Source of the DNA: a virus
Taxonomy: Duplodnaviria; Caudoviricetes
Reading direction: 5' to 3' (one strand)
IMG/VR virus record: IMGVR_UViG_3300017553_000002
Location: 1 to 48,440 of that record
DNA: 48,440 bases
The position numbers were made by a program, and so were the translations under genes. Position 1 is the first letter of the stretch. The number at the start of each line of letters is the position of its first letter. The notes beneath the pieces were generated by a model that had not been told where the DNA came from, ran no database searches, and saw only the letters and a program-made list of their open reading frames with translations. Positions 15,776-43,352 of this stretch are shown piece after piece.

Positions 15776-15798
15776 TTCTTCTTTCTTTTCTTCATTAC

Positions 15799-16279: not shown

Positions 16280-16281
16280 AA

Positions 16282-18073: not shown

Positions 18074-18642
18074 TTTCCCGCGGTTACTATTTTATAAATG
18101 GATCTGGTGAGGTCGATGTCGTACTGGGCGTCATGAAGTTTATTTTCATCTACCTTGATGCCTAGGGCGGCGGCAACGGTCATCAGTTTGAAGTTGACCA
18201 TATCATGGCGCCGCCGCATCAGGTATTGGGTGGCCATAACCATCACATCTATGGAGCTGGACCAAAACCAGCTGCCGAAATAATCATCCAGGTTCTGGAC
18301 AAAGAAGGCCCGGAAGAAATGATTGTCAAAAGAGGCGTTGTTAAAGCCTACCAGGAAGAACTTGTCCTTTTTATTGAACTTATTGACATATTTGCCCAGC
18401 ATTTTAAGTATGACGCGGTACGCATCCTTAAATGGCATATAGCCCTTAATAGCCTCCATGCTGGTACCGGAGATCTCCAGTGCTGCCGGATCGATCTCTG
18501 CAGCATGGTAAGGCTGGCAGCGGATGTCAAAGTATTCCTTGACCTCTCCATCAATCTCAATACAACCGGATATCTGGTGAACGGAGTGGCGCCAATGCCT
18601 GGTACCGGTTGTTTCAACGTCAAAAAAGAATAGTTTACTCAT
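18070..18642 (-). CDS. DEDDh 3'-5' exonuclease (DnaQ-like)
   Basis: FFDVETTG, GFNNASFD, LHDAQYD. Confidence 0.92.
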   Translation of the reverse strand: MSKLFFFDVETTGTRHWRHSVHQISGCIEIDGEVKEYFDIRCQPYHAAEIDPAALEISGTSMEAIKGYMPFKDAYRVILKMLGKYVNKFNKKDKFFLVGFNNASFDNHFFRAFFVQNLDDYFGSWFWSSSIDVMVMATQYLMRRRHDMVNFKLMTVAAALGIKVDENKLHDAQYDIDLTRSIYKIVTAGK

Positions 18643-20746: not shown

Positions 20747-21702
20747 GGCAATTCCATTTTAATTTGTGAACCGGATTGTTGTTGTCTGTCTTTTAATGCT
20801 TCCTGAGGCGTTTCCTCTGCTTCTTTTTGCTGGCGTTCATATTCCAGGGCTGCCTCCTTACAGATCTCCTTATGTTCTTTCAACTTGAGCTTTTGTGCTT
20901 TGGTAAGGTTATTCCAGATGGAAATTACACCGCCCAGGCCCCATTCACAAGCCTGGAGCATTTCTGCTTTTATTTTTGTGATCTGGGGATCTTCTTTTTC
21001 GCCTGTATTTACCCACTCCATGATCTTTCGGCCGGTCTCTTCACCCAGATATCCGGATCCATTACCAAAAGCTGAGAGTAGGAAAGCGGGCATCTTAATG
21101 AATGTCTGTTTCTTGCCTTCCTCACCCATGAGGATGGAAGCAGTCATCTCGAACATGAAGTTCTTTTCGCATACGGGCTGGATACCCAGGCTCACCGGCT
21201 TCTTTGGATTTTTGAAGTCTGTCTTTTCCCGGGCACGAAGGCAGCAGATAATATGCATATTGCTTTGCAACAGGGTATTCATAAAGCTTTTATGTGCACG
21301 TTTTGCACCCACCCAGTTCAACATTTCACTATTACCCATTTTGGCATTGGCAATATCATCGCAACCGCCTTCTCCTTCCCATTCGTGTGAGACGCTGTCG
21401 ATTACCAGGACCTTTACGCCGGCATCCTGGAACTCTTTAATAGCTGATGCGTACCTGGAAGGAGAGAAAGGGGGATAGAGGTCCGCTATCCGGAATTGGC
21501 CATCCAGGATGTCAGCATAAAGAGATCCTCTCATGTTCTCTGAATCCAGGAAGCCTATCTCGCTTGCACTGTTTACCATGCCCCGCGCTATTTTCAATGC
21601 AGTGTAAGTCTTACCGGATCCGCTGACCCCGGCAATGGCTATCACTGTTTTACTGCCGCCTCTTACGGCCGGCCTGATGTTTAAAATTCCCATTGTATTC
21701 AC
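20743..21702 (-). CDS. AAA ATPase, Sak4-like (AAA_24) recombination protein
   Basis: GVSGSGKT, FLDSE, LVIDSVSHEW, HIICCLRA. Confidence 0.82.
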   Translation of the reverse strand: MNTMGILNIRPAVRGGSKTVIAIAGVSGSGKTYTALKIARGMVNSASEIGFLDSENMRGSLYADILDGQFRIADLYPPFSPSRYASAIKEFQDAGVKVLVIDSVSHEWEGEGGCDDIANAKMGNSEMLNWVGAKRAHKSFMNTLLQSNMHIICCLRAREKTDFKNPKKPVSLGIQPVCEKNFMFEMTASILMGEEGKKQTFIKMPAFLLSAFGNGSGYLGEETGRKIMEWVNTGEKEDPQITKIKAEMLQACEWGLGGVISIWNNLTKAQKLKLKEHKEICKEAALEYERQQKEAEETPQEALKDRQQQSGSQIKMELP

Positions 21703-21712
21703 TTTTTATTTA

Positions 21713-22084
21713 TTAATAATCCGGTTGTAGGTATTCTTTCAGGTATTCCCACAATTCGTAATAGTAGTGGTCCGATATTGCTGTATAATCCATTTCTCCA
21801 TCAAACTTGGCCATCTGGGAGGTATCCACGTCTATGGAGTCCTCTCCACCTTCCTGAGTGATCGGATTATAGGTATGCTGCACTTTGGCCCAGATGAAAT
21901 TAATAGTGAAGTAATCGCCATATGCTTCAATGGAGGCAATATCGAAATGGTATTCACCAACGACAAAACCTTTATTTGGTGTCAAATAAAAGCGCACACC
22001 TTTATGCCCCTGGTCGTTTATTACGATCTCAGAATAATGGAATTTGTCCGCTTCAATACTTTCTATTAATTTTGCTGTATTCAC
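21713..22084 (-). CDS. Hypothetical acidic protein
   Basis: In-operon 123-aa ORF. Confidence 0.65.
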   Translation of the reverse strand: MNTAKLIESIEADKFHYSEIVINDQGHKGVRFYLTPNKGFVVGEYHFDIASIEAYGDYFTINFIWAKVQHTYNPITQEGGEDSIDVDTSQMAKFDGEMDYTAISDHYYYELWEYLKEYLQPDY

Positions 22085-22271
22085 TTTATTTATTTTTTAG
22101 GGATGTCCGTCGCTGGGATGTCCCTAATTTTTTTACTAAGATTCCTGCATCTGCATAAAAAATTGTTTAAAAACGCGGGCTTCCACTACTTCCGGCTTCG
22201 TGGTATTTCTGACTTGCCGTTCATTTGCAACTGTGGCATCGGTCAGGATCTCGCCCTCTTACTAAATGGTT

Positions 22272-22313: not shown

Positions 22314-22369
22314 TAAAAGCCGCCCAGAGTGAAAACACAGGCGGGAAGTCCAAAACTGAACTTGATCCG

Positions 22370-22442
22370 TTGCGGAGGCGGGAATCGAACCCGCGACTTA
22401 AGGGATATGAGCCCTTCGAGCTACCAACTGCTCTACTCCGCT
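22370..22442 (-). tRNA. tRNA-fMet (initiator, anticodon CAT)
   Basis: AGCGGAG TA GAGC AGTTGGTA GCTC G AAGGG CTCATAT CCCTT AAGTC GCGGG TTCGATT CCCGC CTCCGCA A; 1:72 mismatch, A11:U24, three G-C pairs in the anticodon stem; CCA not encoded. Confidence 0.92.
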
Positions 22443-22846: not shown

Positions 22847-22997
22847 CAATTTGGATTGATTTTGATATTCCTTCTCTAGCTTTATCAGACTCCTTATCTG
22901 GAGTTGACGGTATTGACTCAGACAGAGCTTTTAAAATCTGAGATATCATACTTAGGTCATTTAGATCTAGTTGATTTTTAATCTTTGTTTTTTTCAT
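22815..22997 (-). CDS. Hypothetical protein
   Basis: 60 aa, convergent with and overlapping the 22598 gene. Confidence 0.45.
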   Translation of the reverse strand: MKKTKIKNQLDLNDLSMISQILKALSESIPSTPDKESDKAREGISKSIQIANRHLQRLLK

Positions 22998-23036
22998 TTC
23001 CGAATGATTGAAAGAATTAAATAATGTTTGGCAATT

Positions 23037-23086
23037 GTCCCCGGATGGAAATCCAGGGACGCAACCAAAACTAACTGCTTATGAGA
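23037..23086 (-). repeat. 27-nt conserved element plus hairpin, copy 1
   Basis: CGCAACCAAAACTAACTGCTTATGAGA (23060-23086) is identical to 28507-28533; adjacent GTCCC/GGGAC hairpin. Confidence 0.85.
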
Positions 23087-23373
23087 CTCTTCTGCTGAGC
23101 TGCATCCTGATGGAGCTGTACCATTTTATCCAGGAATGCCTCTGAGCGTAATGCGTTATACTTATTGCCTTTCTGGTACCATTCAATTGCCTGATCCGGT
23201 GTCTCTGATTCATGTATGCCGGCAATATGGCCTTCAATATCTTCTGGCTCCTTTGCTTTATTTCTGGGATCCTTCTTTTCTTCCTGGGCAACCTTAATAA
23301 GGCCATAGATAAATAATGCTGCCAGATAGATCTTCACCATCAATGGTGAGAGTAAAAAGTTCAATGTGTCCAT
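23071..23373 (-). CDS. Membrane-anchored hypothetical protein
   Basis: N-terminal hydrophobic segment; early operon. Confidence 0.6.
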   Translation of the reverse strand: MDTLNFLLSPLMVKIYLAALFIYGLIKVAQEEKKDPRNKAKEPEDIEGHIAGIHESETPDQAIEWYQKGNKYNALRSEAFLDKMVQLHQDAAQQKSLISS

Positions 23374-23374
23374 G

Positions 23375-23665
23375 TTATAAAAGTTGATGATTAGCGATTA
23401 ATTCATTTATGACGTCATCTTCCGATGGCTCGTTAGAGTCAACCTCAGCCCATTTGATACGCGCACGTTCCATTGCATGGCTGAACACCTGGTCCCAGTT
23501 GATTACATCCCGGACAAATTTTGTATTCAGATTCATGAATTCAATCAGGATGGTGCCATTACCGGTCCTGTGGGACTCCACCAGGACATACAATGTTTTG
23601 CTGTCTATCCTGGTGTTATCGGCCAGGATATTCAGGTAAAAGATTATTTTCTTCATTTGTTTCAC
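23375..23665 (-). CDS. Hypothetical protein
   Basis: Tightly packed operon ORF. Confidence 0.6.
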   Translation of the reverse strand: MKQMKKIIFYLNILADNTRIDSKTLYVLVESHRTGNGTILIEFMNLNTKFVRDVINWDQVFSHAMERARIKWAEVDSNEPSEDDVINELIANHQLL

Positions 23666-23668
23666 TTT

Positions 23669-23893
23669 TTATTTATTGATAGGGGTCAGATTCCTGCCCT
23701 TATTTGCCCTTGCTATTATTTTTGCCAGTTTTTCCTCAGATAACACAGGTTTCCTAGGCTTTTTTTTACTGGCTCCAGTAGAAACCGGAGCCAGCTTTTC
23801 TTCTATTTTTTGGCATTTAGCCAAGCCCATTTGATGATATGCTTTCATTTCTTGCACATCTTTTAATATGTTGTTTACTTCAAGCTGTGTCAT
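23669..23893 (-). CDS. Hypothetical basic protein
   Basis: Tightly packed operon ORF after the cro-like gene. Confidence 0.6.
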   Translation of the reverse strand: MTQLEVNNILKDVQEMKAYHQMGLAKCQKIEEKLAPVSTGASKKKPRKPVLSEEKLAKIIARANKGRNLTPINK

Positions 23894-23899
23894 AACCGA

Positions 23900-24145
23900 T
23901 TATTTTGGAAGGTTTGCCTTGGAAGTCTGCTTTTTCAGGAACTTTCGGACCTGCTTTACTGTTTTCTCAGCACCTGTACCTCTAAAAAGAATGTTGTACA
24001 AAACCGTTCTTTCAATCCCTATTTCAAGCGCCGCTTTTGAAATAGTTTCAGTTTTCTCGACGTGTGCTTTTATCGCTGCAATCTCGTCCGCATTAAACTT
24101 GATGGACCGTCTTTCTGAATATGGGAGTCTATCTTGTGCGTTCAT
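23900..24145 (-). CDS. Cro-like HTH regulator
   Basis: TISKAALEIGIERTVLYNIL HTH; first gene of the early operon, divergent from the repressor. Confidence 0.75.
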   Translation of the reverse strand: MNAQDRLPYSERRSIKFNADEIAAIKAHVEKTETISKAALEIGIERTVLYNILFRGTGAEKTVKQVRKFLKKQTSKANLPK

Positions 24146-24162
24146 GATTTATATTTTTCGGC

Positions 24163-24254
24163 ACTATAATTATAGTACATGGTTTCTTACTATCTTTGTG
24201 TATTGCAATACGAAGATAGGGAACAAAAGGGAATATAACGGAATAAAAAGGGAA
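24163..24254. promoter_or_regulatory. Lysis/lysogeny switch region: opposed -7 boxes, palindromes, phased GGAA repeats
   Basis: TATCTTTG (+, 24191-24198), TATCTTCG (-, 24218-24211), palindromes ACTATAATTATAGT (24163-24176) and GTATTGCAATAC (24200-24211), (G/C)GGAA at 24219, 24229, 24239, 24250. Confidence 0.65.
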
Positions 24255-24300
24255 TTTTTTTAAAAATATTTTTTCGCCATGAATAAAAGTTTTATAATCA

Positions 24301-24696
24301 ATGAATAAGCGATTTATCGAAGTTGTTGAGAGTTTAAATTTTGCATTTCCTGCAACGGAAATTTCAGAGAAAATTGGTTATTCAAAAGGGAAAATAAGTG
24401 AATATCTTAATAACAAGAAAAAAGTACCGAAGGCATTTTTATTGAAGTTTTGTAAGGCGTATAAGCTAAATTATGATGCTTTATTTAAAGAAAATGAAAT
24501 TATGGCTCAAGCTCCAAAAGTGGAAAATGAGTCAGATATGGCCCTGATAATTTTAGTTCACACGATAAAGGATGAACTTTTAGAACTTATTGCGGAGCAA
24601 AAAAATAAGAGTCTGGCAGTTGTACAGGATGATTTTAAGAGACGTGCCATAGCAAAGCAGAAAGAACTTTTGAAGCGCTTAACATCTCTTTCTTAG
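24301..24696 (+). CDS. CI-like XRE HTH repressor (no S24 peptidase domain evident)
   Basis: ATEISEKIGYSKGKISEYLNNKKKVP...FCKAYKLNYDALF. Confidence 0.78.
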   Translation: MNKRFIEVVESLNFAFPATEISEKIGYSKGKISEYLNNKKKVPKAFLLKFCKAYKLNYDALFKENEIMAQAPKVENESDMALIILVHTIKDELLELIAEQKNKSLAVVQDDFKRRAIAKQKELLKRLTSLS

Positions 24697-24832
24697 GCTT
24701 TTTGGAGCGATATTTATTGGACTTTAAGGCTTTTTTATCTTTCTTGGTCTTCTCTTTCATCGTAAGTATTTTGGGGTACAAACTTAATGAATACTAAATA
24801 TATGTGCAAATAAAATTTAAAAAACAACAATT

Positions 24833-25600
24833 ATGAGAAAGTTTTTATTGATTTTAATTTTCATTGCTTTTATCTCAGGATGTTCGACTTCCATTGTAAA
24901 CAAAAAATATACTGTGATAGTTGAAACAGAGTCTAAAGCTATTATTGGGAGTGGCACAGATTCTCATGAGATGAAATTTGATATAAAAGCAAAAGATGAC
25001 ATCGAAGCATATAGGAAGGGGGCGGATTATTATGGAATATCCATAAAAACATATAATCAAAATGAAGATAACACATATCATCCTAGACCTGTAAAATTTG
25101 AGGTTAGGAATGATGTCGGTCTAAATATAGTACCCTTGCTATCTCAAAATATAAAGGACAGTATTAATAAAATAGTTTTCGCAGAATTACTTGAACCTAA
25201 TGGGAATCAAAAGGAAGTCCCTGTGGCAAACGAAATGAAAAATCCGTATTTGGATACAGCAGGTGACGGAGATTCACCGGTGAAAATAACTTCTGCCAGA
25301 TTTATTGAAAAGGAATACTCTAATTATAAGAGTGTAAGATTGTCCTATAGAAATATAAGTGGGAAAAAGATTGATGCAATTAAATTTAGATGGTATGGAA
25401 CAAATGCCTTTGGAGATCCAGCTGAGTGTGGAAGCTATTCTGATATAGGATTGGGAGGAGGTTTTACTGATGATCCATTGGGTGCAGGAAACTCGGATTA
25501 TGGGATTTGGGATATTTTAAGTAAAGACGGGAAAACCATAAAAAGGGCATGGGTCACTGAAGTCGCCTTCCATGATGGAACAAAATGGGAACACGAATAA
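24833..25600 (+). CDS. Lipoprotein (lysogenic conversion or exclusion candidate)
   Basis: Signal peptide with lipobox ISG-C; in the repressor-integrase cluster. Confidence 0.75.
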   Translation: MRKFLLILIFIAFISGCSTSIVNKKYTVIVETESKAIIGSGTDSHEMKFDIKAKDDIEAYRKGADYYGISIKTYNQNEDNTYHPRPVKFEVRNDVGLNIVPLLSQNIKDSINKIVFAELLEPNGNQKEVPVANEMKNPYLDTAGDGDSPVKITSARFIEKEYSNYKSVRLSYRNISGKKIDAIKFRWYGTNAFGDPAECGSYSDIGLGGGFTDDPLGAGNSDYGIWDILSKDGKTIKRAWVTEVAFHDGTKWEHE

Positions 25601-25606
25601 AACTGA

Positions 25607-26689
25607 TTGGTAACCAAAATTCAACTTATGTTAGTTACAACAACAAATACACTTCAAGGGATTGAAATTAAAAAATATTTAAAACCCGTATCGGCCCATG
25701 TAGTAGCCGGTACGGGCTTTTTAAGCGATTTTGGTGCATCTTTTACCGATATCTTTGGCGGAAGATCGGGAACCTACCAAAGACAGCTGCAATCACTTTA
25801 TGATGACGCTACAAATAAGCTAATCCAAAGCGCCATGCAAATTGGGGCTAATTGCATAATTGGACTTAATATTGACATGGATGAAATCTCCGGGAAGGGC
25901 AAGGCTATGTTCATGATAACTGCTACAGGTACTGCAGTAATTATTGAGCAGGGCCTGGCAGTGCAAAAAAATCAAAATATTAATGAAGCTATCAATACGG
26001 ATTATTACGATGCAAGCTATAAATTGATAATTGAATTAAATAAACTAGAAAAGGATCCAACCCATTATTGTCAGGTAGAAACGCTAAAACCTTTATTGGA
26101 TTCAGGAATTCCGGAAACAATAGATTTATTATTAAATAATCTTAAAATATCGTGTAAGCAAAGCATTGACATTAGCGACGATTATAAAAATAAATCAATA
26201 TCCTTTCTTCAAAGGATGCCTTTTGAAGTGGCCACAGAAAAAATTTATGATTCGCTCTTTGAATCAGATAATACAGCACATATTAATTTACTAAAATCCT
26301 TTATTGAAACTGCTGGACTCGTTGATCTGGATAAAGTTAAAAGTTATATTAAGTCAGAAGATATAGCCAAAAAGAAAGGAGCATTAAGAATTGCAACTCT
26401 GAAGAAAGAAACATTTTCAAAATCAGATATTATTGATTACGAACGGATAATTGAATTGATTCAACAAGAGTTTCCTGAAATTGGAACTCGATCAACGCGC
26501 AAAGTTGGGATTCTTTCCAAAGAACGTGATGTTTGGGATTGCCCATGTGGAAGAGAAGGTAATACTGAAGAATATTGTACCAAATGCGATAACAATATCT
26601 ATGGGTTTAAATATTTTGAGATTGACCAGGAGAAAGCGATTCAGGTACTTAAGGATAGGGTCGAAGTCCTATCATTTATTTTTAAATAA
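25607..26689 (+). CDS. YbjQ-family domain protein with C-terminal zinc ribbon
   Basis: LVTTTNTLQG...DIFGGRSGTY...GANCIIGL...ITATGTAV; WDCPCG...YCTKC. Confidence 0.85.
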   Translation: MVTKIQLMLVTTTNTLQGIEIKKYLKPVSAHVVAGTGFLSDFGASFTDIFGGRSGTYQRQLQSLYDDATNKLIQSAMQIGANCIIGLNIDMDEISGKGKAMFMITATGTAVIIEQGLAVQKNQNINEAINTDYYDASYKLIIELNKLEKDPTHYCQVETLKPLLDSGIPETIDLLLNNLKISCKQSIDISDDYKNKSISFLQRMPFEVATEKIYDSLFESDNTAHINLLKSFIETAGLVDLDKVKSYIKSEDIAKKKGALRIATLKKETFSKSDIIDYERIIELIQQEFPEIGTRSTRKVGILSKERDVWDCPCGREGNTEEYCTKCDNNIYGFKYFEIDQEKAIQVLKDRVEVLSFIFK

Positions 26690-26694
26690 GTAGT

Positions 26695-26970
26695 ATGCAC
26701 CTAAAAGAAAAATCTAAAGTTGAAAATCGCCAGGATCAGGCAGTGTTCGATATTATTGACACGCTCATGGAAAAAGGTGTGGTCGACAATGTTCAGGATT
26801 TCTGCGAGAGGGTAGGAATGTTCAAGCAATCCATTACTGAGATTTACAAAGGAATCCGGCATTTTAACGTAAAGCAGATAAGAGAGATTTGCCAGGTATT
26901 TAATGTGAACGCCAATTATATATTTGGGTTTTCCGAAAACAAGTTCCGACCTAAAAATAAACGGACGTGA
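26695..26970 (+). CDS. XRE-type HTH protein
   Basis: QDFCERVGMFKQSITEIYKG...ICQVFNVNANYIFG; next to attP. Confidence 0.8.
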   Translation: MHLKEKSKVENRQDQAVFDIIDTLMEKGVVDNVQDFCERVGMFKQSITEIYKGIRHFNVKQIREICQVFNVNANYIFGFSENKFRPKNKRT

Positions 26971-26997
26971 TAATCAGTGTTTTATACAAAAGTGCTG

Positions 26998-27020
26998 ATC
27001 ACAAAAAGTATCACAAAAAA
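26998..27020 (+). repeat. Putative integrase arm sites, left (ATCACAAAAA x2)
   Basis: ATCACAAAAAGTATCACAAAAA is repeated at 27224-27245 on the other side of the core. Confidence 0.75.
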
Positions 27021-27109
27021 GAAACGAAAATAGGAATATTAAATTAAATATTATTTATAACTTTCTTAATGCCAAAATAATATGAGGCTTTTTTGAGTGG
27101 ACTTTCTCT

Positions 27110-27151
27110 CTACGGATCAGAAGGTTTCAGGTTTGAATCCTGACGCGGTCA
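27110..27151 (+). mobile_element. attP core: 3' half of tRNA-Arg(ACG)
   Basis: CT-ACG-GA TCAGA AGGTT TCAGG TTTGAAT CCTGA CGCGGTC A gives anticodon loop, T arm and acceptor 3' strand; no 5' half; upstream of the integrase. Confidence 0.88.
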
Positions 27152-27157
27152 CTCTTC

Positions 27158-27193
27158 AAAGCCTTGATTGATAAAACTTTCAAGGCTTTTTTT
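27158..27193 (+). terminator. Intrinsic terminator after the tRNA fragment
   Basis: AAAGCCTTGA...TCAAGGCTTT followed by a T tract. Confidence 0.75.
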
Positions 27194-27221
27194 AACTTCT
27201 ATTTTTTGGCATTTCGTCAAG

Positions 27222-27245
27222 GTATCACAAAAAGTATCACAAAAA
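27222..27245 (+). repeat. Putative integrase arm sites, right (GTATCACAAAAA x2)
   Basis: Tandem 12-mer direct repeat matching the left arm. Confidence 0.75.
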
Positions 27246-27254
27246 CGAAATGCA

Positions 27255-28457
27255 ATGATTCAACTTCCTAACAATTGCAGACTGAGTAAAATTTCAGTCC
27301 ACCCTAGCAATTGGAAAACCACTAAAGCCAGTTTAAATGTTAAATGGAGAATCGTTTATCGGTTCTACGATGATAATGTCGGACTGCAAAAGCAGATACG
27401 TAAACAGGGCATGAATGAGTTTGAAGATTTAAAGGGAAGGCAAGCGGCGACAAAGGCAATTCTGGAGAATGAAATAAGAATATTGGAAGAAGGATATAAT
27501 CCAATTCAAAATAGTTTAATTAAAGAAGCTGTCCTGGAAAACGATATTCCCTCGGAAAAGACTCCATTTAATCAGGCGATTGAAATGGCTTTAAAATCGA
27601 TTGATGTTGAAAAGCATACAAAGGAGGATTTAACTTCTGTGGCCGGCTTCGTAAAAATGGCTGCGGATCATTTAAAAATAGATGGTAAGCCAATAGCACA
27701 AACACCGATAGGGAAGATACGGAAAAGGGATATCAGGGCCCTATTTGATTATTTATCCAAAAAAAGGAATTGGTCCAACAATACGTATAACTATTATCGG
27801 TCTCACATGATGATGTTCTATAAGGAGCTCGGAGAGTTTGACGCGGTTGAATCTAATATTCCAAGGGAGTTGTCCAAGAAAAATACCGTCAAGGCCACCA
27901 GGATCCTGTTAACACCTGATCAGAGAACGAAGGTTAAAGAAAAGATTATCTCCAAGAACTATCGGTACTGGCTCTTCATTAATATGTTTTTCCATTCTGG
28001 AGCCAGGATCACGGAATTCTGCCGGCTCAAAATATCAGATGTCAGTCTGGAAAGGCAAACCGCCACTTTTTTAATCAAAAAAAGAAAGCAGTGGATGAAG
28101 GTGGCCAAGCCCATCAAAAATATTGCTTTGCCCTTCTGGGAGGAATTTTTAAAAGATTACAATGATCCCAACCATTATGTGATATCCTGGAGATTGAAAC
28201 CTGGTCCAGATCAGATCCGGACTGAGCAGATCACGCGCCGATGGAAGAACTGGGTAAAAAAAGACAAGGAGCTAAATATCTGTGCGGACTTTTATTCACT
28301 CAAACATCTAAATTCTGATGAGGTTTCTGACCTTGTTGGCATTGAAAAAGCCCAAAAACTGAATTCCCATACATCAACCAGGACCACCCGGATTTATGCC
28401 ATTAATGAGGCGGCCAGGGAGATGGAGATTATAAAAAGGGTAGGGAATGAGTTTTAA
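27255..28457 (+). CDS. int: Tyrosine integrase
   Basis: SGARITE, YSLKH, SHTS..TT.IY catalytic motifs; start reassigned to ATG 27255 because the longer ORF runs through the terminator and arm sites. Confidence 0.93.
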   Translation: MIQLPNNCRLSKISVHPSNWKTTKASLNVKWRIVYRFYDDNVGLQKQIRKQGMNEFEDLKGRQAATKAILENEIRILEEGYNPIQNSLIKEAVLENDIPSEKTPFNQAIEMALKSIDVEKHTKEDLTSVAGFVKMAADHLKIDGKPIAQTPIGKIRKRDIRALFDYLSKKRNWSNNTYNYYRSHMMMFYKELGEFDAVESNIPRELSKKNTVKATRILLTPDQRTKVKEKIISKNYRYWLFINMFFHSGARITEFCRLKISDVSLERQTATFLIKKRKQWMKVAKPIKNIALPFWEEFLKDYNDPNHYVISWRLKPGPDQIRTEQITRRWKNWVKKDKELNICADFYSLKHLNSDEVSDLVGIEKAQKLNSHTSTRTTRIYAINEAAREMEIIKRVGNEF

Positions 28458-28476
28458 TTGCGGCGATTTCGCCTAA

Positions 28477-28533
28477 AATAAAATTAGCCCCTATGGATAT
28501 AGGGGCCGCAACCAAAACTAACTGCTTATGAGA
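28477..28533 (-). ncRNA. Candidate ~55-nt sRNA (copy 2 of the 27-nt element) with promoter and terminator
   Basis: TATCTTTG on minus strand at 28544-28537, then TCTCATAAGCAGTTAGTTTTGGTTGCG, a GCCCCTAT/ATAGGGGC stem and a T-rich tail. Confidence 0.65.
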
Positions 28534-28591
28534 TCACAAAGATAGCCATTTTCCCGAAATAATTACTATTTTGCACTAAATTATTTGGTTT

Positions 28592-28879
28592 ATGAATGCA
28601 AACTGGGGAAAATCGTCTGAAACAAAATACAGTGTTCAAGGAGTGATGGCCATGGCCAGGGAAGCCAGGCTCTCTAAAATGTGGATAAAGTATGATAGTA
28701 CCTGGTATACTCCAGAGGAACTGGAAGCGGTAGCGGAGATCAGGACCTTTGAAGAAGGACGGCTCTTCCTTCGGGATCCCATCATGGCCATCCGCGCCGG
28801 TAGGGCTCACATTGATGATCTCCAGGCTAAGTTGACTGAATTTAACGTGAAGGTGGCAGAGTATTACAGAAATAAATAA
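28592..28879 (+). CDS. Hypothetical protein
   Basis: 95 aa with WYTPEE motif. Confidence 0.65.
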   Translation: MNANWGKSSETKYSVQGVMAMAREARLSKMWIKYDSTWYTPEELEAVAEIRTFEEGRLFLRDPIMAIRAGRAHIDDLQAKLTEFNVKVAEYYRNK

Positions 28880-28933
28880 TTGGTCAGTTTTCCAACTTTT
28901 TATAAATTAGCGTATTGATAACCCAAAAATTAA

Positions 28934-29152
28934 TTGTTTATGAAGTCCTATTTCGCAGTGATCTTGATTGAGTCAGCAATCCCAACTTTCGGAAATCAGA
29001 TTGGTAAGTTCTTGTTTGCAAAAAATATACACGGAATAAATAATGAATTCGAAAACGAAGAAGATGCCCTTAAAGGGGCTGAAGAGATGATCAAAAAAGG
29101 TGCGAATCTGAAAGATTTTTTTATTCACAAATTTTATAAAGGGGCAGTTTAA
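28934..29152 (+). CDS. Hypothetical protein (AT-rich cargo)
   Basis: Short ORF, probable ATG at 28940. Confidence 0.5.
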   Translation: MFMKSYFAVILIESAIPTFGNQIGKFLFAKNIHGINNEFENEEDALKGAEEMIKKGANLKDFFIHKFYKGAV

Positions 29153-29319
29153 AAAATGCCTTTGTTCTGAAAACGAAAACATCCTCACTTATAATAAGGG
29201 TCGAATGAGTTAGGAATTTTATCAGCATGTTGTTAAAATATTAGAATCAAAAGCAATAAGATCCAGGACAAATACATGATATAAAAGGCATATATTCGTT
29301 GCCAAAATAATAATATATT

Positions 29320-29553
29320 ATGGCAATAATTCTAAGCTTGGATGACGTATATGAATATGCTGAATACAAAAAAGGCGGATTCGCGGTCAACAAACTTGAT
29401 GGATCTAAAATTGGGGATGTTGAGTCGATATATTTAGAAAAAGTCCTGCCTGACTCATATGATATCTCTGGAAAAAAGATTATTACAATTGTAAATGGCC
29501 TTCCTCTAAATGAATATATCCAGATGAATGGGTTAGCCGATGAATTTAAATAA
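29320..29553 (+). CDS. Hypothetical protein (AT-rich cargo)
   Basis: 77-aa acidic ORF. Confidence 0.55.
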   Translation: MAIILSLDDVYEYAEYKKGGFAVNKLDGSKIGDVESIYLEKVLPDSYDISGKKIITIVNGLPLNEYIQMNGLADEFK

Positions 29554-29647
29554 ACGTTCTTTCTAAAAAACTCTTTGAATCCTTCTATTTGCACTGTATT
29601 TGTGGGATTCTTTATAGATTTTAATTTAAACACCAAAATTAAAGCAA

Positions 29648-30637
29648 ATGAAATTATTAATCTTAGCCCCCATTAAGCATCTTTATTCAAATAAAGAATT
29701 AGTGGATCATGAATTATTAATGGGATTTCGACTTTCTAATAACTATTCATTATTAGAAGCATCTGGCAACTTTAAAAGTGAGTTTATGACTCAATTCGGC
29801 GGAGTGAACTATGATCTTGTGATGAACCGAAAATTCTGTTTTGTATATCAGATTTATTCCGATATACCAGACAAGTCTGATTTGAGTATACTGTTAGACA
29901 CTGCATCCACTTTTATTAATATTATCATAGGCAATCTGTGGTATATTCGAGATTGTAACCTTTGCGCACCGACAAGTTTTTTATATATAATGGAAGGAGA
30001 TAAGAATCTGTCGCTCATTGTTTATAAAGACTATTATTTTAATACCTCCAAAGGTGGCCGTCTAAATTATATTTATTCCAAAGATTTATTCGATGAATTA
30101 ATAAAAATCTGTGAAAGGGAATTATATTATAGTGCAGTTGTGAATCAAAAAGCTTATGCCATGGTTAGTAAAGATAATAGGGAAGGGTTTTTTAATAGCA
30201 ATGCTGCACTTGTTCCATACAACTCATTTTCCCGTTTCTCAAGAGCGAAGCTTTTTTTACATCAAGCTAGAGCAATTGATGTAATTCCAGTAAAAATAAC
30301 AAATTATATAGCTTCGCTGGAATGTCTTTTTTCCTTACATAAGGAGGATAAATATTGGAATATAAAAAATAGAATCGCGCAGTTTTTAAACGATCCCGAA
30401 TTTGATCTTTCACTTTTTGCATCGGCATACACGATCAGGAATAAATATATCCATGGGCAATTGTTAATTGATTTAGCTACCAAAAAGGAACCCTCTTCGG
30501 AGATTATATTGAAATTAAGTGAATTTTCTGATAGTTTATGTAGGAAAATGTTTAGGAAAGTAATAGAGTCAGATCCAGAACTTTTTATGAAATCTAATAA
30601 AGATTTGATACATTACTTTGCATCATTTCGGGAATAA
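29648..30637 (+). CDS. ApeA-like HEPN domain protein (putative anti-phage RNase)
   Basis: ASLECLF and AYTIRNKYIHG (RxxxxH) near the C-terminus; AT-rich. Confidence 0.78.
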   Translation: MKLLILAPIKHLYSNKELVDHELLMGFRLSNNYSLLEASGNFKSEFMTQFGGVNYDLVMNRKFCFVYQIYSDIPDKSDLSILLDTASTFINIIIGNLWYIRDCNLCAPTSFLYIMEGDKNLSLIVYKDYYFNTSKGGRLNYIYSKDLFDELIKICERELYYSAVVNQKAYAMVSKDNREGFFNSNAALVPYNSFSRFSRAKLFLHQARAIDVIPVKITNYIASLECLFSLHKEDKYWNIKNRIAQFLNDPEFDLSLFASAYTIRNKYIHGQLLIDLATKKEPSSEIILKLSEFSDSLCRKMFRKVIESDPELFMKSNKDLIHYFASFRE

Positions 30638-30867
30638 TATAGATTATCAATAACTTCAAACTTTTCAATGATTCTATTGGAGTTAGCTTCCAACAATGCA
30701 TTATATAGATCCTGAGATATTGGAAAATAACTAACGCCCTCGGAATGCTCCATACCGATAAAAAACAAATTTTCTAGATGTGTAATTATTACTCCGCCTT
30801 CATAATTACTTAGGCCCTTAAACTCGATTCGATTCTCGAACATAGATTTAAATTGTTCTTCCGTCAT
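30613..30867 (-). CDS. Hypothetical protein
   Basis: 84 aa at the end of the late operon. Confidence 0.5.
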   Translation of the reverse strand: MTEEQFKSMFENRIEFKGLSNYEGGVIITHLENLFFIGMEHSEGVSYFPISQDLYNALLEANSNRIIEKFEVIDNLYYSRNDAK

Positions 30868-30899
30868 AATATATTGGTTTTAACTGTTTAAAATTTAGC

Positions 30900-31268
30900 C
30901 TATTTTTCAAGCGCCCTCCGAATCCACCCCTTAAGGTATTTGTCCAGCCGGCTATTTTTGAGACAGAGGGAATCATAATACCAGACTCTGGCTAGCTTGA
31001 AACGAGCTTCAAATAAGGCGCTATCCCTGGATCGAATTGTGCTTTTTTGCTCCTGGATTATTGACTCCAGGGAGTCAAACCGATTGCTCACCCATACCAG
31101 GAAAGAATCGGTGGTAATAACTGTTTCTTTATTTCCCACCAATGGTGTATCAGGTCCGTATACGGTATCTAAAATAACCAGAATAGGGTTTTCTATGCCC
31201 GTTTTCTTTTTATGACATCCGGTGGCCATGATCAGAACCATGGCCAAGACAATACTAAGCTTCTTCAT
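30900..31268 (-). CDS. Lipoprotein in lysis cassette
   Basis: MKKLSIVLAMVLIMATG-C lipobox; coiled coil. Confidence 0.65.
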   Translation of the reverse strand: MKKLSIVLAMVLIMATGCHKKKTGIENPILVILDTVYGPDTPLVGNKETVITTDSFLVWVSNRFDSLESIIQEQKSTIRSRDSALFEARFKLARVWYYDSLCLKNSRLDKYLKGWIRRALEK

Positions 31269-31689
31269 TTGCTAATTTGTTTAAAATGTTGATCGTATTC
31301 TGGTTCAGACCGACCTTATTCTCCATGGCTATATTTAAAGCCTGCCCAACGATAACTGGAACGGATCCACCGCCCGTGTTCACGTTGACATCAAAGATCT
31401 GCTCCGCAAAGTGCTGGACATTTATATCATCCCCATGGATAGGATCCCAGTAAAGGCTTTTGAATATAGCCTGAGCTCTGGCTTCAGTTAGAGAATCCAT
31501 GTCATCCCGGGTGGGCTGTTTCCCATAGAAGCGCTTATAATCGATGGGTGTAATACCATATTTGGTACCGGAGAGCTCTCCAACGCCAATTTGGCCACTA
31601 GTCCAGTTTCCGGAGTCATCAGGATCAAGGTCTAGCCTACTACCTTCCCATCCCACCGTTTTTCTGTATGCTTTTAAAAATTCTGCCAT
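31255..31689 (-). CDS. Endolysin, glycoside hydrolase family 108
   Basis: WEG...DPDDSG...GTKYGIT...IFKSLYWD...FDVNVNTG. Confidence 0.9.
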   Translation of the reverse strand: MAEFLKAYRKTVGWEGSRLDLDPDDSGNWTSGQIGVGELSGTKYGITPIDYKRFYGKQPTRDDMDSLTEARAQAIFKSLYWDPIHGDDINVQHFAEQIFDVNVNTGGGSVPVIVGQALNIAMENKVGLNQNTINILNKLANEEA

Positions 31690-31691
31690 AA

Positions 31692-32357
31692 CTATTTTTT
31701 GATAAGTTTGTTTTTAAACCATTTAATAACCGTTTTCCTTTTCGCCAGCACCCAAACAATCAGAGCAACTAACACCCCCAGTCCAATAAGCTGCAGTACT
31801 GGCCACTTGGTTTTACTCTCAACTTCTTTAGTCTTTTCGGCGTGTAAATGGCTCCCAGAAGCGGCTATTTGGCTCAAACTGTCTAATATCTCATTAACCC
31901 TCTTCTTTTGTTCTGCAATCGAATCCTGCGCCCGTATGGAGGTTTTGTCTTTAATGTTGATTTGCTTAGTGTAAGTCGTTTGTTCGCCATGGCCTTCAAC
32001 CTTAACCTTGGCCTTTATTAAACCCGTCGCCTTATCATAATTGGCCGTTAAGGTGACCCCGTTACTGGTTAGTTTAATTCCGCCCCCAGCAGCTGTGTCA
32101 ATCTTGAAGTTTCCGGTCAAAACGATTGGTTCGGAGCTTGACTTAGTTTCGCTTTCGATAATGGACATATCCTTTCCTTTGTCCACGCTTAAATTGCTTG
32201 TGTGGGAAAGGAACTGTGAGGAATCGGATAGTGATTGTTTTACCTCCGCCTTAGCGACATTAAGCGTGTCCGCCTTGTCTATTTTTTGCGATTTGGTCAA
32301 GTGCCTGGAATGTGAACACCCTAGAAGTAACACGGCCAGAATTAATACTTTTTTCAT
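31692..32357 (-). CDS. Putative unimolecular spanin
   Basis: N-terminal lipobox LLG-C plus a C-terminal TM helix with basic tail; adjacent to the endolysin. Confidence 0.6.
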   Translation of the reverse strand: MKKVLILAVLLLGCSHSRHLTKSQKIDKADTLNVAKAEVKQSLSDSSQFLSHTSNLSVDKGKDMSIIESETKSSSEPIVLTGNFKIDTAAGGGIKLTSNGVTLTANYDKATGLIKAKVKVEGHGEQTTYTKQINIKDKTSIRAQDSIAEQKKRVNEILDSLSQIAASGSHLHAEKTKEVESKTKWPVLQLIGLGVLVALIVWVLAKRKTVIKWFKNKLIKK

Positions 32358-32782
32358 GATTGCGGTTTTATAGTGATCACTTTAGCGCCACCGGTTGAAT
32401 TGAGTTTCATCTTGAAAATTTCAAAGTTTTTGCGATTCTCGTCTTTAAGCATGGAGTTTAAAACCCCTTGTAAGGAATCCTTGTCATGCTGCACTTGCAA
32501 CCTTTCGGCATGCTCAAACTGCCAGTTCTGTTGATACTGCTGGACTATCTTTACTTTATCAGCCGAGCAGTCCCCAACGCCTTTATCGTACTGTTTTCCG
32601 CCCCAAATAAATAGAGCGGGAATAGCAGTACAGATAATAAAGACCGACACGTAAAAGGCATAAGCAATGAAACTCGTTCGTTTTACCTCGTCCTTTGCGT
32701 CTCCGGTGTCATCAGTTCCGGCTTGTGGTATGTTTATGGGTGGTGGCATTGGAAGGATTTTAAAGCGCCCCGAAGGGCGCAT
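32354..32782 (-). CDS. Membrane protein, holin candidate
   Basis: Single TM plus coiled coil at the head of the lysis cassette. Confidence 0.5.
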   Translation of the reverse strand: MRPSGRFKILPMPPPINIPQAGTDDTGDAKDEVKRTSFIAYAFYVSVFIICTAIPALFIWGGKQYDKGVGDCSADKVKIVQQYQQNWQFEHAERLQVQHDKDSLQGVLNSMLKDENRKNFEIFKMKLNSTGGAKVITIKPQS

Positions 32783-32792
32783 GATTAATTTT

Positions 32793-35162
32793 TTAGGCTA
32801 ATAATCCCGGCAGGATCTTATCCCTTAAGATGGTATAAATCTCAGTGGCTAAATACTCAGACCATTCAGCATTAAAATGATATTGGTCAATAAGTTGGGC
32901 ATCCTTCATGTCTATCAGATATATGTTTTCATCCTGAGCAGCAATATCCTTTTGTGCCTGTTCAACAATAGTATTGTATTGAGCAGATGCATGAGGGACT
33001 GTACTCATGAATATGGGCAGCTTAGGATTGCCGACCACGCCCCGGATATAATCAATAACATTAATCAGATTATCGTAATATTTGATAGCTGCGTTTATTG
33101 TCGAATCTCCCTCTCCCTGAATGAATAAAACGAATTTTAGACAGCGAATATCAATACCATTGGCGATCATTCTCCTAAATGCCTGCTCCGCCAATAAAAG
33201 AAGCTTTAAATCTGATTTACCATTATCTTCATTATATTTGTCTATCTGCTCATCCAGAGGAGTCCAAAAGCCACCACCGTCAGTACCCGTAGTGTCTATT
33301 GCCGTTCCTCCCAGTGATCTTTTTAATTCATATACATCCACGCCTTTGCTTTCTAAATAATGCGTTAGTTTCTTCAAAAGCAAAACGTCAAAGCCCCATT
33401 TGCCATTTAATACATAAGGTGCAAAATTGGGATTTAACTGGTTCTTGCTGTAATACGTACCTGTCATGGTAGTTCCGTCCAGATAGTTGACCGTATTCCC
33501 GTCCTCATCCTGATAAGAAACAGGGAAATCTGCGATTGCGTTCCTTCCGTCTATTTGGCTTTGTCCAAGTGCCCAAAAAACCAATATTGCAAGTGCGATT
33601 AGATTCTTATCATAGTTTTTGGGTGCCGCTCCTCTATTATACATATCAGAGATCGCATTAAGCACCTTTTTGGCGTTGTCGGGAAGTAGATCTGATAGTT
33701 TATCTATATCGATATTTTCTGGATCGATCTTATTTGGATTTTTACCGCCAGGATAAACAGCTATTTTAGCATCTGCTGGTAGTCTACTTCCGGATGCTGT
33801 GTTGAAATTGACGGCAATTTTGGCCACATTTGCTACGGTTATCGGCACCTCAAAATGCCCATTGTCAATGTCAGCTACTAGCGCATCTGAGTAATTTATC
33901 CTTTTTAAGAAGTTTCCATCGGCATCCAGAACCAAAAAAAGCATTGAGGTAGGAGCTTGATAGTTATATCCATCAAGTATTACCGTGTCGCCCGTTTTGC
34001 AGTCAAGTAAGTCATTTTTATGTTGCCATCCGGAAATAACGGTAACAGTGGGCGCATTGCCTACGGTTCCAGTCCAGTATCCGGCGGAATACGGAGGGAA
34101 ATCTGCATTTAAAGAGGCAGGGAAAATACTTTGTTTAAGCCCTAGGACACCCTTAGATGAGATGTTTTTAGTGCTATTTTTAATATCATCGGTGGTTTCG
34201 TTTACCCCTTTTATATCTTCAGTTGCCTTAGGTAAATTATCTGAATTTGCCACCAATAAGGTATTAACCCCTATTGTAACCTTGTCAATTGGGAAATTCT
34301 CTTCATCAGTATTATAAAAGTATAACCCAATTTTTGCAACTCCGGCACCAACACTTGCCTCAAAATGTCCGGCTTCCATGTCAGCATTCTCGGCGGTATC
34401 TCCCTGCAGCCTGCCCAAATAATTGCCATCGCTGTCAATCCATGCAAGCAGCCCGTTTGTTGCGATTCCATTAAGATTAAACCCATCAAGGATGATCCGA
34501 TCACCTTCTTTCACATCCATAAGGTCCGCATATTTATATCCCGCTGTGGTAGTCTTTATTACAGCCGCCTCGCCAACATTGCCACCCCAAAAGCCATCAC
34601 CTACGGGCGTGAATGGCATTGGAGGGTTTTCAGCGGTGAATGCCCCTTCAATGAAAGATATTTTTTTGTTCAAATCCTGCGTAGAGCCTGGAAAGCCACC
34701 GTTAGGTGTTAAATAATTTGTATCTACATCCACCGGTACTGCCTGCACCGTCGCTTTTGTGCCGTCCCAGCTGATCACATTCAGATTTTCGGTCAACACA
34801 ATCGGCTGTGCATCTGCTCCGGGAAAGGATGCAAAAGTGCCAGGGCCGGAGAAATAGATGTATTGAGAATCTGTGGTGGCTCCTGCTGCGGGGACTGTAT
34901 TGGTAAAGGCCACTCCTTTAATATTACCAGGAGCACCAATGGGTATAAATTCATTACCAGTGTAAAAATTATAAATCCCAGCGATCCAAAAGAATTTATA
35001 CTTGGCCCAGGTGGGAGACATATCCTGACCAGCAAAGAATGCGGTTACTTCAGATGTGCTGGTCCAGTGCCTATAAGTTCCATCTCCTATAGGATACAGC
35101 TCCCATTCATTGAACGGTTTAGGATTAGTCGGTTTAAAATTGTCAGATGTTGCAATACTCAT
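32793..35162 (-). CDS. Tail spike / receptor-binding protein with C-terminal SGNH O-acetylesterase (SASA-like)
   Basis: GQSQ, GGT, QGEGD and DQYH motifs; two internal repeated domains; last tail gene. Confidence 0.78.
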   Translation of the reverse strand: MSIATSDNFKPTNPKPFNEWELYPIGDGTYRHWTSTSEVTAFFAGQDMSPTWAKYKFFWIAGIYNFYTGNEFIPIGAPGNIKGVAFTNTVPAAGATTDSQYIYFSGPGTFASFPGADAQPIVLTENLNVISWDGTKATVQAVPVDVDTNYLTPNGGFPGSTQDLNKKISFIEGAFTAENPPMPFTPVGDGFWGGNVGEAAVIKTTTAGYKYADLMDVKEGDRIILDGFNLNGIATNGLLAWIDSDGNYLGRLQGDTAENADMEAGHFEASVGAGVAKIGLYFYNTDEENFPIDKVTIGVNTLLVANSDNLPKATEDIKGVNETTDDIKNSTKNISSKGVLGLKQSIFPASLNADFPPYSAGYWTGTVGNAPTVTVISGWQHKNDLLDCKTGDTVILDGYNYQAPTSMLFLVLDADGNFLKRINYSDALVADIDNGHFEVPITVANVAKIAVNFNTASGSRLPADAKIAVYPGGKNPNKIDPENIDIDKLSDLLPDNAKKVLNAISDMYNRGAAPKNYDKNLIALAILVFWALGQSQIDGRNAIADFPVSYQDEDGNTVNYLDGTTMTGTYYSKNQLNPNFAPYVLNGKWGFDVLLLKKLTHYLESKGVDVYELKRSLGGTAIDTTGTDGGGFWTPLDEQIDKYNEDNGKSDLKLLLLAEQAFRRMIANGIDIRCLKFVLFIQGEGDSTINAAIKYYDNLINVIDYIRGVVGNPKLPIFMSTVPHASAQYNTIVEQAQKDIAAQDENIYLIDMKDAQLIDQYHFNAEWSEYLATEIYTILRDKILPGLLA

Positions 35163-35189
35163 CGTGCTAATATTAATATGGTGGAAAAA

Positions 35190-38100
35190 TTATTTTACTT
35201 TAATTCGGGTGGATGGATTGTTGTTGAACTGGGTAATCCATTGAGATTTATATAACCTCCCAGGCAGGCCATTAATGGTAAAATCTTTTGATTTGAACAG
35301 ATCCCCGGGTTGATCAATGGTACCAGTCATCAAGGGCTGTCCCAGGTCCTGCCAGGAGGTTTTAAGACTAAAACCCAGTGGTATCCAAAACCAGTAATAA
35401 GCGGCCTTAAGGACCGGACCGTAATTAATGATAATATCGCCGTCAGGATTAGCCAGGAAGAATTTATCTGCAATTGTGGGATCCGCTGCTGTTGGTAGTG
35501 TGCCGTAATAAATCATTGTATTTGTTTGGGTCTTGAATAATTCAATGCCAGGATCCTCTACAGGAGAGAGATCAATATCGAAATAGGATAGGGGGTTACC
35601 TTCCTGTTCATGCGCCTGGAGTTTTGAGTCTGCATTTCTGGTGTATTTCTGGCCATCAATAAACAAAGTGTTTACCGAAAGGACATGGTTAAGTTTAATC
35701 ACCATCCAATCGGGCAAACCATATGCATCCCCAAGAAATAATTTCCGGGTGTAGGTGGCCATACTGCTAAGGATCTCAAAATTACCTTCCTCATCCTGGT
35801 AATCCTCCAACGTATTTGTAGGTGTTATATGCTGCCAGAAAGCTGCCACACGTATGGATGGATTCCAGCCGTCAAAAAAGGCGTCAATAAAATTGTAGCT
35901 GTTTTTGTATTCAAACAGGAAGGTATCGGGACAATCATCATTTACTGAGAACGGCTCACTAATACAGATTGGTTTCCCCTCAGAATAAACCAGGGCGGTA
36001 TAATTACCCTCTTCCAGGTCCGATGTGTCAATACTTGCCTGTAAAAGCCGATTAGGAGCCAACACGGCCGGATTTAACGCTTCGGTCATGGGCACTTCGT
36101 TGACAAAGCCCAAAAGGCAGGAATGTACCTTAATAACAATATTGGAGTTGCTATTGGCCAGGAACTGAAGCTCGATGGTATCGCCCTGCTGCCATGGTTG
36201 AATATATTTAGCTGACATGGTCCAGCGCGTCATACGCTCAGACAGCCAGGCGTTGTACATGCCCGTTTCATGGTATTTAGCGGGCACCTGATAATCATAT
36301 TTGACCAGGTGAAGCGGGTTCAGATTGGATATATAAAGAGAATTGTCCATGTTGAAAAAGAATTGCCCGTTCTCATTTAGTTTGAACAGCGTGGAAAGAT
36401 CAGTTTTAGGCGCTACCAAAAGTGTCCATTCCTGGGAGCTACTGATAGCTGGCTTTGCCTTCATGGTCCCGACCGGGAGACAGTAAAGTTCAAAGCCCTT
36501 GTATTTGAGTTTAATATAGCCTTTGCCGATATTACTCATTACATCTACAAACCGGTAAGGAACCTTAGATTTAAAGGTCAGCTGGTATGGCAGAAATAGC
36601 GGCTGGCTAAGACTCTCCACTGGAGTGTCTGCTACCTCGTTTACGACATCGGCGCCTAGCGTTGTTACCAGGCCCGTGTTTTTATTACCGGTCAGAAATT
36701 TAATGGCCTGGCCAGCCTGCTGCATGAGCATGCCATGCAGATAATTACCATGTGCCAGCAGCTGCCTTTTAGGGCTGATTGTGGTATTATAAACCGTATT
36801 ATCCAATACGCCAGCAATAGTATCGTATTCGGGCCGGTTAACCACTGTCCTTATGCCGGAGATTTGGATGGTAGCGTTCACATCCTCTTCCAAGGTTGTG
36901 GCCGTGTCGATCCAGACCAAGAACTCGTAAAATGAAGGCCCCCCGCCTTGAACTGCCGTTACTTTTGCGGTAAAATTGTTATTCACTGTTCCGGAAATCA
37001 CCAAAGTGTCCCCAACCCGAAACTTGGACTTCAGGGACGGATCATGAAACCCGATTGCATTTGGCAGCTGCAAGAATGAAACTATACCGGCAATAGATTC
37101 TGTTTTGGTTACTTCCATGGTATCTACCAGAAAAGCCTGTTTGTCTCCGTCATTATCCGTATTGTCCAGGCCTGTTAGACCGCCCCTGATAAATTCAATG
37201 CCAAAGGCATCACCCCGGTATTTAGAGGTGATGTCATAATCCTTTTTGACCACGGTAACCGGCAGGGAGAAGGAATGCTCTGTATTGAACTCAAACTTTC
37301 CGCTGTTGGCATCATAATCCTGATCCGGATACCCGCACATAACCACATTGGCGATATAACTATCAGCTGTTGCGATTTCAAGGTCTTTTACTTCCCCGAT
37401 ATCCAGTACCTGGTCCTCATCACCATACAGGTCTGCCTTGGGTTCTACCCAAAGGACATTATCCTCTATTTTAATGCCCAGATTATAAATAGCGTTATAG
37501 CTGGCAAAGAAATCAGCAAAACTGGTCGTTAAAAGGTAATTCTGAATAGGGTGGCCATCGCCTTTTGCTGTATTACGAATGGCATCGCCACAACTAGTAA
37601 CTAAATTTGCATTTTGTGTAAAGAACTTGCTTTCTGCTGTAAATTTCCCGTCCGTCATTTTAGAGACAATAGCCTTTAGTAAAGCCAATGGCCGCAAAGC
37701 ATAATTTTCCGAATCATCATTTACAGAGGTAGTGATCACCTTAAGCTCCTGGTCACCAAATACTATATTTGAACTTACGGTGTCGCTCGGACCTTCCGGC
37801 GTTAAAACGCCATAAACAAATAGCTTACTATTAGGATCGACCGTAACAGCCAAATCAATTTTAAGTATAGCCGCGGATCCATGCTGAGGGTAATCGAACT
37901 TGTCTATCAAAACCGGAGTTCCTAATACGCTTGCTGCCTCATCGTAGATTACATATTTCAAAGAATAGGAGCCAGGCGTATCCTGATTATCAAGACCTAC
38001 CGGATAGGATGATCGTGCCTTAATGTAAAAGTTTCCCTGGATCTTGACTGCTACTGCCCGGCTGGATGTTTCCAGCAGGTAATTGGTATTATCTTTTAAG

Positions 38101-43295: not shown

Positions 43296-43314
43296 TCCTT
43301 AAGGTTTAATGGTT

Positions 43315-43341: not shown

Positions 43342-43352
43342 ATTTATAGCTA

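Follow-up and report, generated by a model that had tools for sequence, protein, structure and literature searches.

Phage-borne copies of a small-RNA-like family of Chitinophagaceae, predicted to mask start codons

The window analysed here is a complete virus record of 48.4 kb (48,440 nucleotides) with direct terminal repeats. It holds two copies of an element that we read, with a probability of roughly 0.6, as phage-borne members of a small-RNA family of Chitinophagaceae that would mask start codons, chiefly those of receptors and exported proteins and perhaps those of the phage's own genes. The family, its fixed strand, the covarying terminator, the two phage layouts and the complementarity are established. 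In the proposed mechanism, the RNA has an invariant 24-nt 5′ stretch that would base-pair with mRNAs from the A-rich leader through the AUG and so prevent their translation. Copy A would be made from its own housekeeping promoter and copy B would form the 3′ end of an early lytic transcript, each RNA having many imperfectly matched start regions as partners, mainly in mRNAs for TonB-dependent receptors and further proteins destined for export. The phage may thereby take over a host envelope-control circuit and free it from host sigma54-type control, and the same RNA may also repress phage accessory genes, above all ORF 28940. Possible benefits include fewer surface receptors, spared export capacity or the switching off of lysogeny genes.

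An earlier note on this DNA had reported an exact 27-nt repeat, and we find it at 23060-23086 and 28507-28533, 5447 nt apart. Identity between the copies ends with these 27 nt and extends on neither side. When the 21-nt core was sought with three mismatches allowed, 0/100 shuffles yielded even one match. The two copies comprise the following features:

28537..28544, minus strand: -7 box of copy A, a Bacteroidota-type promoter element (TAnnTTTG) identified from the sequence
28478..28534, minus strand: copy A, predicted stand-alone small RNA of ~57 nt (seed 28533-28507, terminator hairpin 28507-28486, U-rich tail)
23037..23086, minus strand: copy B, 3′-UTR form (seed 23086-23060, different hairpin 23060-23037)
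23071..23373, minus strand: 100-aa ORF of the leftward early operon, its stop codon within the copy B seed

The box described in the earlier note, TATCTTTG, stands on the minus strand at 28544-28537, with 3 nt between it and the 27-mer that follows, and the hairpin and U-rich tail of copy A are likewise as described, with 8 Watson-Crick pairs and a closing G-U; no -33 TTTG box was evident by eye. The fold of copy A, calculated for a predicted RNA 5′ end, has a z of -2.55, and its hairpin is one of just two terminator-like sites within 22900-29800, while the seed can partly form a weak 7-pair helix. Copy A converges on the 3′ end of the integrase gene. Copy B does carry a hairpin of different sequence (23037-23060), and inspection of its sequence revealed no -7 box, no U tail and no promoter of its own. 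It sits where the first leftward early genes end, and the 100-aa ORF there has no Pfam or PHROG match.

The 27-mer is not specific to the phage: it is the seed of a multicopy small-RNA-like family of Chitinophagaceae. The 21-nt core matched an estimated ~1,800 GTDB stretches, and among the 80 titles listed for these matches 61 named Chitinophagales taxa, 14 gave the phylum only and 5 named other taxa, the listed genera being placed in what we take to be their families. With one mismatch allowed, the core is present in 181 of 251 genomes of the family at 1-7 copies each (reversed control, 0). Genome G038, a stand-in chosen in place of the phage's true host, has five chromosomal copies. At all 120 fetched chromosomal loci the ATG on the sense strand opens just 2-54 codons and never a gene, and 119 of the 120 show a G+C hairpin with an A-run upstream, the remaining locus being cut by a contig end. 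A sigma54-like box lies upstream of 50/123 host copies, as against 0/117 control windows and 0/16 viral loci; the consensus used agrees with that given in PMC12316311, and G038 encodes RpoN. Host copies are thus predicted from sequence to be stand-alone genes, many of them behind a sigma54-type promoter. The sigma54-like box sits 29-90 nt upstream of the seed (host loci L010-L129 and L236), and in 38 cases TTAACA precedes it by 21-22 nt, possibly an undescribed activator site or a Bacteroidota promoter extension. A second, tandem seed-like stretch lies directly 5′ of the first in 31/123 host copies (for example L044, L059 and L089).

The hairpin is conserved as a structure. Across 37 aligned host and phage copies, 98.2% of the cells of a 9-pair stem are paired and 8/9 stem pairs show compensatory change (0/500 shuffles), with slid controls at 24-56% for these 37 sequences, a comparison that leans in favour of the stem because it was derived from the same alignment. 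The alignment is made up of 37 gap-free rows; not included are copy B, L079 and nine rows in which the stem is shifted. This covariation, the fixed strand and the 120/120 chromosomal matches that open no gene all support the earlier proposal of a base-pairing small RNA as a prediction, and we regard it as highly probable that the element is an RNA gene. The repeat might instead be a DNA site (operator, recombination or att) or the start of a plus-strand leader peptide, given that two exact copies flank the lysogeny module and that the plus strand reads as a leader plus ATG. However, the terminator is always attached on one strand, the compensatory changes tolerate G-U, the repeat is not palindromic, other phages have a single copy, and the sense ORFs range from 2 to 54 aa, which makes either version very improbable; the leader-peptide and operator readings were rejected on the one-strand terminator link, the variable sense ORFs and the lack of a palindrome. 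As an attachment site, too, the repeat was rejected, the core shared with the host integration site lying at 27110-27155 instead.

The closest functional parallel is FopS, described in PMC11697453 as a paralogous sRNA family of Bacteroides thetaiotaomicron (Rfam RF04319) that represses susC translation and binds RbpB through its single-stranded part. Like FopS, the element is multicopy and combines a 5′ seed left single-stranded with an intrinsic terminator behind it (copy B lacking the U tail). As in FopS, the seed is complementary to start regions at a matching register, SusC-type mRNAs may be among the targets, and there are intergenic and 3′-UTR forms as well as copies in phages. Unlike FopS, it has a predicted length of ~57 nt rather than 71 model positions, belongs to Chitinophagaceae rather than Bacteroidaceae, has 1-7 rather than 12-15 copies per genome, is in many host copies preceded by a sigma54-type instead of a housekeeping box, and in phages has mostly moved to gene 3′ ends. 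In FopS loci a TAnnTTTG box precedes the RNA 5′ end by 4 nt; here such a housekeeping box is found directly upstream of copy A and of the copy at locus L225, and in 2/123 host and 0/16 other viral copies. The RF04319 covariance model gave no match at copy A or B at E up to 10 and only sub-threshold matches elsewhere, FopS loci scoring 57-78 bits as the positive control, and Rfam scans found nothing at either copy. Between the seed and the FopS R1/R1′ seed there is gapped likeness only, equalled by 70/2000 dinucleotide shuffles. The element would work like FopS, yet it is not a member of the FopS family. The Chitinophagaceae family is likely its counterpart, a real FopS-like family that is probably undescribed to date: we found no description of a Chitinophagaceae sRNA of this kind in the openly readable literature, and the main text of PMC11697453 notes one Caudovirales phage copy and does not mention Chitinophagaceae. 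If so, these data define an apparently undescribed family-wide regulatory RNA in a group of abundant soil and freshwater polysaccharide degraders. A FopS probe matched 63 viral stretches (L160-L222), some of which may be host DNA at prophage edges, as against the single phage copy given in PMC11697453.

The binding of FopS to RbpB (PMC11697453) raises the alternative that the main role of the RNA is to decoy an RbpB-like RRM protein rather than to pair. G038 has two RRM_1 genes, and an invariant stretch of 21-24 nt exceeds what most pairing seeds need. The complement of that stretch is nevertheless exactly in register with the AUG and with receptor start regions, and the common seed variant, an A-to-G change, keeps pairing possible, so we judge the decoy improbable and prefer a pairing RNA.

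As to what such an RNA would pair with in the host, no exact full-length leader match turned up in host mRNAs (0/120 fetched loci). A 14-mer leader search returned one SusC start among 14, and an exact 13-nt seed match 30 loci with ~7 gene starts, 0 SusC and no conserved target. Another search was swamped by matches to the RNA genes. We also used a bipartite pattern in which the two ends of the seed complement are retained and the RNA gene is excluded. In 401 genomes it found 20 matches (reversed control, 9), none of them in G038: 17 open ORFs of at least 50 aa, two variant RNA genes and one short frame. Seven of the 17 gene starts encode a TonB plug with CarboxypepD_reg and one further start a receptor-like barrel, the rest including one OMP barrel, three M13 peptidase lipoproteins and one aquaporin; as two of the receptor matches and the three peptidases are orthologous, the 17 amount to ~14 independent cases. 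A single permuted control gave 3 matches (7 when reversed), and none of the 3 starts a frame of over 28 codons. With a looser pattern in 61 genomes, 17 of 29 sites examined (from 32 non-RNA sites) open at least 60 aa, and the three best-pairing ORF starts among the 29 are TonB receptors, one of which is also in the strict set.

In G038 the test covered 2.0 of 4.9 Mb and 1,318 script-called ORFs, 64 of them SusC-like. By perfect-helix energy the 64 SusC starts pair better than the 1,254 others by 0.97 kcal/mol (0/60 shuffled seeds) and in-register identity is slightly higher for SusC (p=0.004), with at least 18 of 24 positions paired in only 3/64; whole-duplex energy fails to tell SusC and other genes apart (p=0.39). 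The suggestion that TonB-dependent or SusC-type receptors are among the targets is supported as a prediction by 8/17 bipartite starts and by the perfect-helix energies in G038, with no enrichment in whole-duplex energy or in the exact 13-nt search. Receptors are enriched among the best complements, and by these sequence comparisons targets must be partial and many. Because the seed mirrors the general start context of Bacteroidota, which is A-rich at -12/-11, some complementarity is expected by chance. According to PMC6847099, Shine-Dalgarno pairing is absent in Bacteroidota, which rely on upstream adenines instead; that the seed covers this A-rich zone makes start blocking plausible and raises chance complementarity as well. 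On balance we favour an RNA that represses start regions, with host receptors as its main targets. That it serves superinfection exclusion, as the earlier note supposed, is a guess.

Phages have repeatedly captured this host RNA family. Besides the window phage, the core occurs in 16 viral stretches, which are 13 distinct records, and none of their flanks aligned to the window outside the element over the flanks compared. These phages have one copy each, as against two in the window, and none of the 16 copies has a sigma54-like box or a nearby -7 box; 13 of the 16 lie -5 to 50 nt from a same-strand gene stop. Copy B, at a gene 3′ end, is therefore of the usual phage form. A second stand-alone phage copy is that of G313 (L153). 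Among GenBank phages only two short, chance-level matches were found. Copy A is identical over 48 nt (28487-28534), hairpin included, to chromosomal copy L236 of G038, which carries a sigma54-type box where copy A has the -7 box. The proposed mimicry of a host sRNA fits this well, the element belonging to a host family with one chromosomal copy identical over 48 nt. Since the hairpin of copy B resembles another host subtype, we infer that two separate captures are likelier than duplication of one copy. At L225, among ten loci with related integrases, a variant copy has its own -7 box 15 nt before it and converges on the integrase, and the integrase relic of G038 has a copy ~1.7 kb downstream.

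The position of 13/16 viral copies where a terminator is needed, and of copy A at the end of a convergent region after the integrase, would also suit an element picked up by phages as a ready-made terminator, its seed playing no role. Against this, phage hairpins diverge while the seed is exact (though exact seeds were what the search selected), copy B has kept its seed but not its U tail, and copy A and L225 have a -7 box of their own, so a mere terminator has little probability. Capture of a regulatory RNA is the reading we retain. On that reading, unrelated phages have repeatedly taken up the same host RNA and made its expression their own, in most cases at the 3′ end of a gene, a pattern that suggests a general route by which Bacteroidota phages rewire host translation. 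We found no description of such phage RNAs in the openly readable literature. Prophage trans-acting sRNAs (DicF, Esr41 and AgvB) and cis RNAs in superinfection exclusion (STnc6030 and sas) are covered in PMC12197685. Like DicF, Esr41 and AgvB, the element is a phage-borne RNA predicted to alter host or phage expression by pairing. Unlike it, all five come from enterobacterial phages and are either Hfq-dependent or cis-antisense, and AgvB mimics a target whereas the element here copies the actual host regulator.

The window phage is temperate. It encodes a terminase, portal, tail and replication genes, two HTH regulators and a tyrosine integrase; almost all lytic genes are on the minus strand, and lysogeny and accessory genes occupy the plus strand at 24301-30637, with one more at 4808. 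The integration features are:

27255..28457, plus strand: tyrosine integrase gene, copy A lying just 3′ of its stop
27110..27155, no strand assigned: probable attP core (3′ half of tRNA-Arg), matching L223, L224 and L228 by related integrases

The tRNA-Arg identity was read by eye from L223. The integrase is found at E 1e-40 or better in 19/301 genomes, a group at the level of Chitinophagaceae, and G038 has a broken integrase copy (74% DNA identity) adjoining the tRNA core of window 27110-27155. Direct repeats at 26998-27029 and 27224-27255 flank the core and are probably integrase arm sites. A 26-nt near-identical repeat (92%) at 23800-23825, inside ORF 23669-23893, and 27196-27221, between attP and the integrase start, is a possible operator or excisionase site.

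When the phage's own genes were scored against the seed, the best matches fell in this plus-strand region:

28920..28943, plus strand: leader and start codon of ORF 28940, pairing at 28926-28943
28940..29152, plus strand: ORF 28940, 70-aa orphan gene and best predicted target, 400 nt from copy A
25628..26689, plus strand: YbjQ-domain accessory gene, second-best phage target (12-bp helix, -9.8)
29648..30637, plus strand: 329-aa HEPN-like accessory gene, third-best phage target (11-bp helix, -9.4)
24833..25600, plus strand: accessory lipoprotein gene (8-bp helix, -7.2 kcal/mol)

The leader of ORF 28940 would form 18 contiguous in-register pairs with the seed (3 G-U) through the AUG, at -16.8 kcal/mol, and a promoter-like box with one mismatch precedes it at 28903-28910, as read by eye. 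This is the strongest predicted duplex of ~2,100 genes; the best of 1,318 host genes reaches 15 bp and -13.4, the best of ~735 genes in 13 other phages -13.9. Its energy was attained by 2/500 shuffled seeds over 53 window genes, and its 18 bp by 0/500. We found no relatives or family for ORF 28940; two candidates, L368 and P0002, were rejected as short or repetitive matches. The earlier note had singled out the lipoprotein, and TTATGAGA is indeed present at 24831-24838, but a mere 8-bp helix of -7.2 displaces it as main phage target in favour of ORF 28940. The fourth-best-pairing gene of the window is the plus-strand accessory gene at 4808. No helix with the seed was found for the two HTH regulators or for the integrase start, which was scored apart from the strand counts below. 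The accessory genes have no PADLOC match. ORF 29648, for which Pfam also gave none, has a predicted fold with a TM of 0.81 to a HEPN cluster; judged from that model and an RxxxxH-like motif, it is a candidate anti-phage gene.

These matches raise the alternative that the RNA is kept mainly for the phage's own genes, as an antitoxin-like off-switch for ORF 28940 and the lysogeny-side accessory genes, host targets being incidental. It is supported by the ORF 28940 helix, beyond any host or other-phage gene scored. In addition, nine plus-strand genes have a pairing advantage of 4.8 kcal/mol over 44 minus-strand genes (3.6 with ORF 28940 left out; 0/500 shuffles), or of 2.9 with automatic gene calls (0/100 shuffles), although the plus-strand accessory class was defined after the top matches were known. 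RNA from this region fits as well: seven contigs in one soil metatranscriptome cover the repressor, lipoprotein, integrase and 29108-29494. None lies over copy A, copy B or 30500-48300; such contigs cannot reveal a 57-nt RNA, and the gaps between them carry no weight as evidence. On the other side, pooling the 13 other phages shows no such strand effect (+0.48 over 505 genes, 68/100 shuffles; low-GC genes, 22/100), and 8 of their records are incomplete. G313 alone among them shows it, its low-GC genes pairing better than the rest (0/100 shuffles), and no strong self-target was found in the 13. ORF 28940 has no relatives that could show covariation, and conservation of the RNA in host chromosomes is left unexplained. 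Control of the phage's own genes is thus unlikely to be the main reason for keeping the RNA, whereas self-silencing of accessory genes in the window phage, alongside host targets, is a tentative possibility.

Masking of host start regions by a captured RNA may be extended into a two-way switch, in which the twice-captured master sRNA of the host would repress host TonB receptors and, when released with the early lytic transcript as the prophage is induced, would also silence the phage's own accessory and HEPN-like genes, whose leaders would have evolved toward the host seed. We consider this doubtful; if true, the phage would have made an RNA-based form of self-immunity out of a regulator stolen from its host. 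In type I toxin-antitoxin systems a small gene has a nearby RNA that covers its start region. The extended antisense pairing (18 bp) over the ORF 28940 start is similar, but the 70-aa product is not a hydrophobic peptide, and the RNA/ORF 28940 pair occurs in one phage only, with none in the 13 others. The prophage autoimmunity control system Tha/Ith (PMC11087260) likewise involves a prophage HEPN-type gene that needs switching off at induction (here HEPN-like by fold); inhibition of Tha comes from the product of a gene that overlaps it in antisense, whereas here a trans-encoded, captured RNA is predicted to pair.

Several other features of the window were observed. An A-rich leader ending before ATG or GTG is common to three early genes (21691-21718, 22076-22096 and 23654-23681) and has no complementarity to the seed. 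The early genes also include a second recombinase, of serine type with a resolvase/invertase domain (7642-8511), and a PRTRC-type cluster (13232-16647) with ThiF, prokaryotic E2 family D and PRTRC protein E. A fusion of a PD-(D/E)XK nuclease and an FtsK-like ATPase is encoded at 18635-20746, and a tRNA-Met(CAT) gene on the minus strand (22369-22442) lies within a probably spurious plus-strand ORF of 247 codons. Finally, another exact 27-nt repeat, at 59-85 and 284-310, has a hairpin arm and a U-run and is located just past the portal gene.
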